NCBI GenBank assembly: GCA_951406725.2
Contig: OX597816.1
Location: forward strand, 180,668,001-180,732,000
Source: Octopus vulgaris
Taxonomy: Eukaryota
Reading direction: 5' to 3'
Length of the DNA: 64,000 nt
Positions within the stretch are counted from its first letter, which is position 1. Every line of letters starts with the position of its first letter. Below the pieces are notes generated by a model. It saw nothing but the letters and a program-made list of their open reading frames with translations. It ran no database searches and had not been told where the DNA came from. This document shows positions 6,987 to 58,859 of this stretch, one piece after another. A program made the position numbers and the translations under genes.

Positions 6987-7034
<48 letters not shown>

Positions 7035-7039
<5 letters not shown>

Positions 7040-7245
7040 TAATCCAAACAAGAAAGCACAAAAAAAAACACAACAACGTGAGGACGTGGAACAAATATAG
7101 TATTATTGGACGCACAGGAAAGAAGGAAAGAAGGAGGGTTTAACGTTTCGAGTGGAGCTCTTCGTCGGAAACATAGGAGAAGGAAAGATCCAGAGCAGGG
7201 AAGACAGAGGAAAAAAAATCGCCAACAGTACACACGAGGTCACAT
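7035..7245 (-). mobile_element. Short Penelope-like-element-type fragment with hammerhead-like motif at 7138-7172
   Basis: Minus strand GTTT-CCGACGA-A-GAG(CTCCA)CTC-GAAA-CG-TT-AAAC; abuts (TA)n; homologous to 15655-15853. Confidence 0.6.
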
Positions 7246-15241: not shown

Positions 15242-15360
15242 ACAGCTGGCCATATCACTTTGAAAACACCTGTTCTCGTCCGATCAACGAAGTTAAGCAA
15301 AGTCGAGCCTAGTTAGTACTGAGACGGGTGACCGCTTGGAAAACCTAGGTGCTGTAAATG
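15242..15360 (+). rRNA. 5S rRNA gene copy or pseudogene (solitary)
   Basis: ggccatatcactttgaaaacacctgttctcgtccgatcaacgaagttaagcaaagtcgagcctagttagtactgagacgggtgaccgcttggaaaacctaggtgctgta is colinear with metazoan 5S. Box A and box C are recognisable; compensatory pairs actttg/caaagt and cctag/ctagg. Confidence 0.9.
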
Positions 15361-15655: not shown

Positions 15656-15853
15656 GAGAGAAAAACACAAGAAAAAAACAACAAACACAAGAATGTGGTA
15701 GATACAAAGTATTAGCGGACACTCGGGGAAGGAAAGAAAGGTGATTTTACACTTCAAGCAAAGCTCTTCATCAGAAACAAAAGATGGAGGAAAATCCAAG
15801 AGAAAAGGAATACGGAGAAAAAACAATTGCCAACGATCCACATGTGGTTACAT
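15655..15853 (-). mobile_element. Penelope-type fragment with hammerhead-like motif at 15744-15778
   Basis: Minus strand GTTT-CTGATGA-A-GAGC(TTT)GCTT-GAAG-TG-TA-AAAT; homologous to 7035-7245. Confidence 0.6.
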
Positions 15854-17139: not shown

Positions 17140-17990
17140 TTAAAACCTAGCTAAAACCAAAGTGCTAATAAGTAGGAAGGCAGACAAACCACAAATCCCT
17201 TCAGGTAGATGGCCCTGCTCGATCTGTAGAAAAGGCATATGTACCCAGTGTAAGCAATGGACACATAAGAGGTGCAACAATATCAATGGAAGGCTAACTG
17301 GGAGGATAGTTTTTGTATGTGACAGATGCTCAGGAGCAATAAACACTGAAAATGTGCAGAGAACAACTTCTGCCACATTCCAGGGAGAAAAACTAGAAGT
17401 AGCTGATAGCTTCCATTACCTAGGTGACCAAGTCAATAGCAGGGGCGGGTGTGCTGAAAGTGTAACTGCTAGAATAAGAATAGCCTGGGCAAAGTTCAGA
17501 GAGCTCTTACCTCTGCTGGTGACAAAGGGCCTCTCACTCAGGTAAACTGCATGATGCATCTGTACAAATAGCCATGCTACATGGCAGCAAAACATGGGCC
17601 GTGACTGCTGAGGACATGTATAGGTTCACAAAGAATAAAGCCAGTATAATACGATGGATGTGTAATGTCAGTGTGCAAACTTGACAGAGTGTAAGTACCC
17701 TGAGAGAAAAGTTGGACCTAAGAAGCATCAGATGTGGTGTGCAAGAGAGACGACTGCACTGGTATAGTCATGTGGCAAGAATGGATGAGGATAGCTGTGT
17801 GAAAAAGTGTCACACCCTAGCGGTTGAGGGAACCTGTGGAAGAGGTAGACCCATGAAGACCTGGGATGAGGTGGTGAAGCACGACCTTCGAACATTAGGC
17901 CTCACAGAGACCATGACTAGTGACCGAGACCTTTGGAAATATGCTATGCCTGAGAAGACCCGGCAAGACAAGTGAGACCATAGCTAAGCT
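17140..17990 (+). mobile_element. RTE LINE, 5'-truncated ORF C-terminus (frameshifted)
   Basis: NLAKTKVL...LEVADSFHYLGD...ARIRIAWAKFRELLPLL...ERRLHWYSHVARM...GRGRPMKTWDEVV are typical RTE post-RT motifs. Confidence 0.92.
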
Positions 17991-25094: not shown

Positions 25095-25293
25095 ACAATA
25101 AACAAAAGACAAAGACAGGTGAGGTAACAACAAACAACGTATATTAGTTTGACACTCAAGAAAAATGGAAAAGTCTTTGATGTTTTGAGCGTATGCCCTT
25201 TAACAGAAAGGAATGAAGAAAGAAAATGGAGAAAGAAAAGAGCTGAGAGAGAAAAAAATGTGGATTAATGATTTCGCATGTCGAATTGACTGA
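25095..25293 (-). mobile_element. Degraded Penelope-type fragment
   Basis: Reverse-complement homolog of 58675-58859; decayed hammerhead-like motif at 25175-25210. Confidence 0.55.
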
Positions 25294-45570: not shown

Positions 45571-45595
45571 AAATACTGGGCTATCAACACTGCCA

Positions 45596-45627
<32 letters not shown>

Positions 45628-45647
45628 TGGCAGTGTTGATAGCCCAG

Positions 45648-45652
<5 letters not shown>
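45571..45652. repeat. Perfect 82-bp palindrome (26-bp arms around (TA)15)
   Basis: aaatactgggctatcaacactgccag-(ta)15-ctggcagtgttgatagcccagtattt. Confidence 0.95.
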
Positions 45653-58201: not shown

Positions 58202-58291
58202 TAATAACTAATGTAGGATAAAAATTTTTTTGAAACCAAAAAATTCTATCAATGGCCAGCATATCAAAAAAATACCTTTAAAGGTTAAATT

Positions 58292-58664
58292 TATATATAA
58301 CTTATAAAATGAGGGCAAAAGAAAAATTCTAATGCCAAATATGCCGAAAAAAGACAAAATTGTCAATAACCATTATAATTTATGTGTCTCGAAACATGCC
58401 AATAGAAATTTCTAAAACATTCCGTTATTACCGTATTAGTCCCAATTTCAGGGTTAATTCATAAGAATTTTCCCCTCGTCAGCTGAATTCTTATGAATTA
58501 ACCCCGAAATTGGGACCAATACGGTAATAACGGAATTTTTTAGAAATTTCTATTGGCATGTTTCGAGACGCATAAATTATAATGGTTATTGACAATTTTG
58601 TCTTTTTTTCGGCATATTTGGCATTAGAATTTTTCTTTTGCCCTCATTTTATAAGTTATATATA
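58292..58664. repeat. Long palindrome, ~178-bp arms, 16-nt spacer
   Basis: 58292-58469 matches the reverse complement of 58486-58664 with only a handful of differences. Confidence 0.95.
58431..58485 (-). ncRNA. Type I hammerhead ribozyme motif with canonical core and truncated stem I
   Basis: CAG-CTGACGA-GGGG-AA-AATTC(TTAT)GAATT-AA-CCCT-GAA-ATTG(GGAC)TAAT-A-CGG. Confidence 0.68.
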
Positions 58665-58674
58665 TATATATATA

Positions 58675-58859
58675 TGATAGATTGCTAGCCACTACACATT
58701 CTATATTTTCTCTCTTTGTTTCTTTCTGTGTTCCTTTCTGTGGAAGAGCTTAGGCTCGAAATGTTAAAGACTTTTTCACTTCCCGAGCATTATACTAATA
58801 CACCTGTTTGTTGTCTACACTACCTGTCTTCGTCTTTTGTTTTTTTGTGAATTCTCCCT
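58675..58859 (+). mobile_element. Penelope-type fragment with hammerhead-like motif at 58734-58769
   Basis: CTTT-CTGTGGA-A-GAGC(TTAG)GCTC-GAAA-TG-TT-AAAG; flanked by (TA)n on both sides. Confidence 0.6.

Follow-up and report, generated by a model that had tools for sequence, protein, structure and literature searches.

Hammerhead-bearing pseudo-LTR copies in Octopus vulgaris probably derive from two Neptune-like Penelope lineages with off-consensus ribozyme cores

Penelope-like elements (PLEs) carry minimal type I hammerhead ribozymes with a palindromic helix III, which are thought to act as dimers. In metazoan Penelope elements, such minimal dimer-type hammerheads lie in the pseudo-LTRs (pLTRs), occur mostly as single dispersed copies and show low activity in vitro (PMC4209133). 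An internal pLTR promoter has been reported for Drosophila Penelope (PMC2377424). Core variants of the hammerhead include U4C, described in a viroid, and A6C, described in phage Bcep176 (PMC3088659, PMC7151607), and a full mutagenesis found low activity for single substitutions in the CUGA turn (PMC9901934). For Octopus vulgaris, a repeat annotation describes Penelope families with recent activity, and the word ribozyme is absent from it. Judging by titles and the beginnings of abstracts, we found no report of a natural A6U core, or of A6U or U4C in Penelope elements, in a search that lay outside a variant survey of 2017. That work, by Lunse, Weinberg & Breaker (RNA Biol 14:1499, 2017), is said to be a survey of Penelope hammerhead variants and may include these cores.

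We analysed a 64-kb window of the O. vulgaris genome (the window being the whole stretch of DNA under study), in which four motif-bearing elements of ~200 bp, here called E1 to E4, had been proposed from the sequence alone. All four were re-found at the same coordinates when the sequence was checked (Table 1), and they are the sole elements of either lineage profile in the window (two profiles, 139 genome copies). They occur as singletons, 8–33 kb apart. Judged by their sequence relationships, E1–E4 are solo pLTRs of two Neptune-like, protein-coding Penelope lineages of different ages (A and B), the Neptune placement being made by motifs.

Table 1 Hammerhead-bearing elements and associated features in the window
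Feature	Position	Strand	Description
E1: solo pLTR (3' end), lineage-A Penelope-like, U4C subfamily	7035..7245	-	Starts at ATG 77 nt before core
E1 minimal type I hammerhead	7138..7172	-	GTTT / CCGACGA / A / GAGC-TCC-ACTC / GAAA CG T T / AAAC; U4C at 7167; predicted cut between 7142 and 7141
(TA)n/(CA)n target microsatellite at E1 3' end	6992..7034	.	(TA)-rich flank beyond 3' end in nearly all aligned copies
E2: old lineage-A copy, canonical-core subfamily, eroded 3' end	15660..15853	-	82–88% identity to relatives
E2 hammerhead, decayed	15744..15778	-	CTGATGA core; A15.1 and palindrome lost
E3: very old lineage-B copy	25095..25260	-	~21% from nearest relative collected
E3 hammerhead remnant with U6	25175..25210	-	Core CTGTTAA; G8 and G12 lost
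E4: solo pLTR, lineage-B Penelope-like, A6U subfamily	58674..58858	+	Starts at ATG 64 nt before core
E4 minimal hammerhead	58734..58769	+	CTTT / CTGTGGA / A / GAGC-TTAG-GCTC / GAAA TG T T / AAAG; A6U at 58741; predicted cut between 58765 and 58766

The standard models did not recover these motifs. An Rfam scan of the window gave no hammerhead match at E ≤ 5, and none above the gathering threshold of Hammerhead_1 (RF00163), the model suggested as a check by the sequence-only reading. With a relaxed hammerhead descriptor, 8 sites were found in the window compared with 3–11 in 10 shuffles. Since this descriptor alone performs at chance level, the reality of the motif rests on the family-wide matches. 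A stem II of the form GAGC-loop-GCTC had been described as common to all four elements, which fails for E1, where GAGC-TCC-ACTC contains a C.A mismatch. This mismatch is CpG-type decay of the individual copy: it is present in 1 of 22 U4C matches (among the first 100 listed), and four public runs carry G at the position at ~89–99.7% of depth. The ACGT palindrome of helix III holds for E1 only; A15.1 is lost in E2, G8 and G12 are lost in E3, and C15.2 is changed to T in E4. Searching the window by tblastn with Penelope RT and EN gave no match, and none of its nine ORFs of at least 130 aa was a Penelope ORF, as judged by eye. The four window copies themselves are likely inert.

Across the 2.8 Gb of genome searched, an exact motif pattern gave 33,578 matches, whereas its reversed control gave 0; as these families served as the model for the pattern, other hammerhead families fall outside this count. 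A profile search of 800 kb taken blind recovered 26 elements, which extrapolates to ~90,000 genome-wide. Among the matches listed, E1 had relatives at 29 other loci (96–97% identical, same ends), with the core CCGACGA in 30/30 aligned copies, and E4 had relatives at 29 other loci (93–96% identical), nearly all with CTGTGGA; the cores of E2 relatives were mostly canonical. All families have a fixed 3' end, which is followed by (TA)n. RF00163, run over the genome, yielded 6 matches among 73 scored candidates, all of them other, unrelated motifs of canonical type. The loci L355–L360 hold canonical type I hammerheads with a real helix III, three of which carry a long stem II insert.

Clustering of 257 distinct near-full copies resolved six subfamilies with at least 7 members. 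Four of these carry A6U, with N7 being G, U, A or C, and one is mostly U4C (57 CCGACGA and 16 CTGACGA of 94). The remaining one, of E2 type, is canonical and, together with the CTGTCGA group, the most diverged. CUGANGA is kept only in the older E2 family and one sister group, and U4C is found in two groups. A hand count of the first 100 of the 33,578 matches gave 61 A6U, 22 U4C, 14 canonical, 2 A6C and 1 with both U4C and A6U, meaning that most matches lack an intact CUGANGA (or U3-A8) core and that the genome holds ~20,000 A6U copies (extrapolated from 61 of 100). U4C and A6U had been proposed to be subfamily-fixed variants instead of decay, and their constancy in the aligned copies and in the subfamily consensuses bears this out. 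U4C and A6U occur together in no subfamily consensus. At the U4C position, no other letter occurs in public runs under four organism labels, and the same holds for U6 in four public runs under two organism labels; these runs are contigs at 88–90% likeness, so that canonical relatives may be under-represented. In one run under another organism label, depth peaks on 7138–7172 alone, with loose ends on both sides.

The short elements had also been taken for non-autonomous, retrozyme-like retroelements. The data do not support this, as the copies lie scattered one by one and share a fixed 3' end, and longer ones continue upstream into an ORF. In the longer copies, the region upstream of the motif consists of low-complexity UTR and then GIY-YIG and RT on the same strand, with a Cys linker between the two domains, which establishes the suspected linkage to RT-GIY-YIG ORFs. 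An E4-type core lies downstream of RT and GIY-YIG in L126 and L128 and downstream of GIY-YIG in L129, and L053 is also a long copy of E4 type; an E1-type U4C core lies downstream of RT in L121, and in the canonical sister copy L101/L123 the core lies downstream of GIY-YIG. A further copy, L133 (1–1990), located 10 kb upstream of the window, belongs to the youngest A6U family; it is 5'-truncated but includes both RT and GIY-YIG.

An RT query uncovered a very young family, many copies of which score equally, with frames of up to 1211 codons. In young lineage B (20 stretches fetched), units are arranged in tandem or partial tandem with a spacing of 4.47–4.57 kb (L166–L170, L174–L178, L182) and a hammerhead in each pLTR. 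The ORF of 968–1076 aa contains DKG, YIDD, CSRPRCRTC and a GIY-YIG-type motif; in Pfam, RVT_1 scored above and GIY-YIG below the cut-off (E 0.0005–0.007). Young lineage A likewise has many equal-scoring RT copies, with frames of 884–1061 aa, a tandem spacing of 6.2 kb and the Cys linker CSRSRCNTC, and the two young lineages are 66% identical in protein. Intact ORFs were seen in younger relatives of the E1, E2, E3 and E4 subfamilies and in none of those exact subfamilies. Of 8000 entries scored in a search for RT homologues, 782 were relatives; no Penelope clade is named among the 120 listed, and a PDB search gave no match. In most young lineage-B copies (e.g., L177 4140–7367), the ORF runs ~110 codons past GIY-YIG into a low-complexity tail rich in Pro, Ser and Leu; that of L173 ends right after the GIY-YIG domain.

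This architecture resembles endonuclease-positive Neptune PLEs, which have a single ORF with RT, a CX2-5CxxC linker plus GIY-YIG at the C-terminus, and which also form pLTRs by partial tandems, target microsatellites and are 5'-truncated (PMC8557442, PMC3846280). Unlike Neptune, both young lineages described here have off-consensus cores, and the likeness is one of motifs. Non-LTR retrozymes share with our elements their shortness, the lack of coding capacity, the type I hammerhead, the occurrence in animal genomes and a kinship with pLTRs (PMC7229834, 10.64898/2026.07.22.740005). However, they are tandem repeats of 150–450 bp with canonical hammerheads and expressed circles (PMC7229834), whereas the present copies are dispersed ends of coding elements. 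A retrozyme identity was rejected, as the tandem units in the loci collected measure 4.5 and 6.2 kb and contain an ORF, in place of 150–450-bp repeats.

The youngest families of both lineages are fixed for a core change. In lineage B the core is CTGTTGA (3,089 exact 35-mers), as in every element-linked motif of the young stretches. In lineage A, L391 has CCGACGA, as do 11 of the 12 stretches behind long ORFs; the remaining one lacks the motif. Slower self-cutting is predicted for these young intact families. Across the six subfamily consensuses, 27/35 motif columns are invariant compared with 39/118 ungapped flanking columns (p=5e-6, indicative only, as the six consensuses are related and non-independent), and on this comparison the hammerhead motif appears to remain constrained in sequence. 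Held in all six are C3, G5, G8, A9, G12–A14, the ACGU palindrome and a non-G H17. The variable sites are N7 (A, C, G, U), loop II, H17 (U or A in the consensuses), a single pair in stem I, and core positions 4 and 6.

All six consensuses have a helix I of 3–5 bp, G10.1-C11.1 in helix II, an extra nucleotide after A9 and a palindromic helix III. Together with the location of the motif in the pLTRs of RT-GIY-YIG elements, this upholds their assignment to Penelope-type minimal type I hammerheads. The described minimal hammerheads of PLEs agree in all of these features (type I, short helix I, extra nucleotide after A9, G10.1-C11.1, palindromic 15.2–16.2) as well as in U-rich flanks, pLTR location and mostly single copies tied to truncated elements (PMC4209133). 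In contrast, their consensus is CUGANGAH with U3-A8 as core variant, whereas most of our pattern matches carry A6U or U4C, and helix II has 4 bp here compared with 7–8 bp described for Schistosoma (PMC4209133). Pairing is kept in 97.8% of cells across 23 copies. Of the covariation previously claimed for stem I, one compensatory pair stands (outer stem I, G-C versus C-G between the lineages), representing a single event, and no two-sided change was found in stem II. All six subfamilies also conserve three short motifs outside the hammerhead, namely CYGAGCG and TAATAC on its downstream side (window 7105–7120 -, 58776–58800 +) and CGYTRGC on its upstream side; CYGAGCG could act as a switch by pairing with the 3' arm of stem II.

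Past the element end, the tandem units read GCTTCCCG-TTATATAT in lineage B and GGATTAAAA-TTATACC in lineage A. Single insertions end where the tandem unit has an internal TTATA-containing site, and then pass into (TA)n. On the other side, 5' ends lie within 11 nt of the boundary ATG in 28/29 anchored loci for E1, within 9 nt in 24/28 for E2 and within 8 nt in 22/30 for E4, in sets chosen to cover the query and with 3/90 loci lacking an anchor. These ends pile up with a peak 7–8 nt (about 6–8 nt) before the ATG, which is 64–77 nt ahead of the core. In the unselected blind sample, 6/9 lineage-A elements start at -75 to -77; among 30 unselected young lineage-B copies, 8 start at -74 to -86, 16 beyond -250 and 6 are shorter.

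The pile-up of 5' ends likely marks the transcription start, and its boundary sequence, (T/G)CATTC or CAGATC, resembles an initiator. Alternatively, pausing of RT combined with TA microhomology to (TA)n could generate the same pattern. The boundary ATG opens a start-stop (ATG-TGA, ATG-TAA) in lineage A (7235–7245 -, 15841–15853 -) and a four-codon frame in lineage B (58674–58685 +, L177 7795), in both cases in a Kozak-like context; it would form a minimal upstream ORF that is conserved and may control how the element is translated.

The predicted cut site left no footprint in the copy ends. For lineage A (100 of 127 matches listed, counted by hand), ~9 junctions fell at -1..+1 compared with ~21 over -2..-9, without a peak and with three positions blurred by TA microhomology; for lineage B (97/97 listed, counted by hand), ~2 junctions fell at the cut site, again without a peak. 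None of the 26 blind-sample elements and none of 15 long copies had its 5' end there, and more-than-unit copies of up to 6.5 kb cross the motif twice. Copying of cut RNA should have concentrated 5' ends at the cut site; their absence there indicates that the RNA copied was uncut (or re-ligated), which does not by itself exclude cutting. Uncut RNA was thus mostly the template of the inserted cDNAs. In the anole Poseidon element PAc, reverse transcription similarly starts inside the RNA downstream of the hammerhead, at an AT-rich target and on an uncut template (PMC11167929). However, PAc starts within the ORF and without homology to the target (PMC11167929), whereas here the putative start is a TTATA-containing site that matches (TA)n and lies in a long 5' UTR.

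Considering these data together, we assign a probability of roughly 0.7 to the reading that the four elements are short ends of two Neptune-like lineages, produced by an internal start of reverse transcription and run-off, with A6U and U4C cores that are predicted to cut slowly. The GIY-YIG domain would nick a (TA)n target, and the nicked DNA would prime on the internal TTATA-containing RNA site, ~105–110 nt after the cut site. The 5' pile-up would correspond to the start of an internal pLTR promoter, so that a ~200-nt copy would arise when reverse transcription runs off the 5' end of the RNA, whereas longer and more-than-unit copies would come from read-through of tandems or from circular RNA. 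The motif itself may be under selection as a slow, dimer- or protein-assisted ribozyme, with weakening at U4 and A6 being tolerated or favoured, as fast cutting would destroy the template.

While the kind of element is known, the young intact families of both lineages with off-consensus cores and the rest of the motif held are new, as is the mapping of a likely start site and an uncut template by copy ends. Either the core tolerates A6U in nature at a scale of ~20,000 copies or the motif has a non-catalytic job, and the elements with intact ORFs make both options testable. Most motifs of these two lineages would escape descriptors in which CUGANGA is required. The end maps also provide a simple likely origin for solo pLTRs and in-genome support for internal initiation on uncut RNA.

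A doubtful but serious alternative is that the hammerhead is a catalytically dead relic, kept as a structural or sequence signal of the pLTR (RT binding, promoter or initiation), in which A6U and U4C became fixed once catalysis was unimportant. Hammerhead mutants had no effect on in vitro insertion by the anole element (PMC11167929), Naiad elements thrive without canonical hammerheads (PMC8557442) and, given the low activity of CUGA-turn changes (PMC9901934), A6U may be dead rather than slow. The missing cut-site footprint points in the same direction, as does folding. A6U permits an alternative rod-like fold, in which U4-G5-U6 pairs with A15.1-C-G, and this is the minimum-energy fold of E3 and of 3/4 A6U consensuses. 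Stem I of the youngest U4C family contains a U.U mismatch, which fits a decay of function. In free cofolding of the motifs, stem II duplexes dominate; consensus folding did not reproduce a possible long-range pairing outside the motif. A relic, however, would hardly be expected to hold the core bases and the palindrome with changes falling exactly at sites that hammerheads tolerate (N7, loop II, and H17 among U/A/C), nor does any subfamily consensus join U4C with A6U. Furthermore, viroids with U4C remain infectious, and A6C keeps low activity (PMC3088659).

The opposite extension can be made only tentatively, namely that two lineages independently fixed throttled hammerheads in their amplifying masters, that A6U is still active and gated by a dimer, a protein or a metal ion, and that slowing was selected since the uncut 5' end is the template. 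The U4C of the viroid and the A6C of Bcep176 affect the same core positions and show low but real activity, with A6C preferring Mn2+ (PMC3088659, PMC7151607). In contrast to the thousands of minimal-motif copies here, those are rare single cases in full-size ribozymes (PMC3088659, PMC7151607). If throttled masters were true, the natural series of canonical, U4C and A6U cores with all four N7 would make the role of Penelope hammerheads directly testable.

It is improbable that the core variants are functionally meaningless chance hitch-hikers in a few master copies. Retrotransposon subfamilies do descend from few masters, and a parsimony argument based on CUGANGA in other animals, in place of a tree, gives the direction of change at U4 and A6. 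On the other hand, U6 persists through four N7 states, from the ~21%-diverged E3 and the oldest lineage-B subfamily (0.114 mean distance) to the 99%-identical family, and U4C cannot stem from CpG decay because decay of CCG to CTG would remove U4C, not create it. Very unlikely, finally, is a self-propagating non-autonomous family of ~200-bp elements, SINE- or retrozyme-like and mobilised in trans: most copies are short with shared ends (0/26 blind-sample elements extend beyond -131), include the likely start site and could be transcribed, and non-LTR retrozymes have been argued to derive from pLTRs (10.64898/2026.07.22.740005), but the short copies of the youngest family are 99–100% identical to the intact tandem element and therefore by-products and not a separate family, over half of the unselected young copies (16/30) reach far upstream, the short subfamilies of E1, E2 and E4 each have longer copies with the same 3' end, no short tandem arrays occurred among the loci collected, and a lone copy would be without a partner hammerhead and, by analogy with the anole element (PMC11167929), without the downstream RNA needed by the protein.

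Other features of the window were recorded alongside the four elements. Directly upstream of E4, a near-perfect 385-bp inverted repeat (58286–58670) with arms 97% complementary is MITE-like or a fold-back. A 5S rRNA-like sequence at 15242–15360 (+) scores above the Rfam gathering score (80 bits), lies among microsatellites and is probably the head of a 5S-derived SINE. At 45573–45650, inverted arms of 25 bp surround (TA)n; this miRNA-like hairpin scores below the cut-off and is likely a small MITE or a target-site structure. A frame of 133 aa at 17144–17545 (+) looks like a fragment of another LINE ORF.
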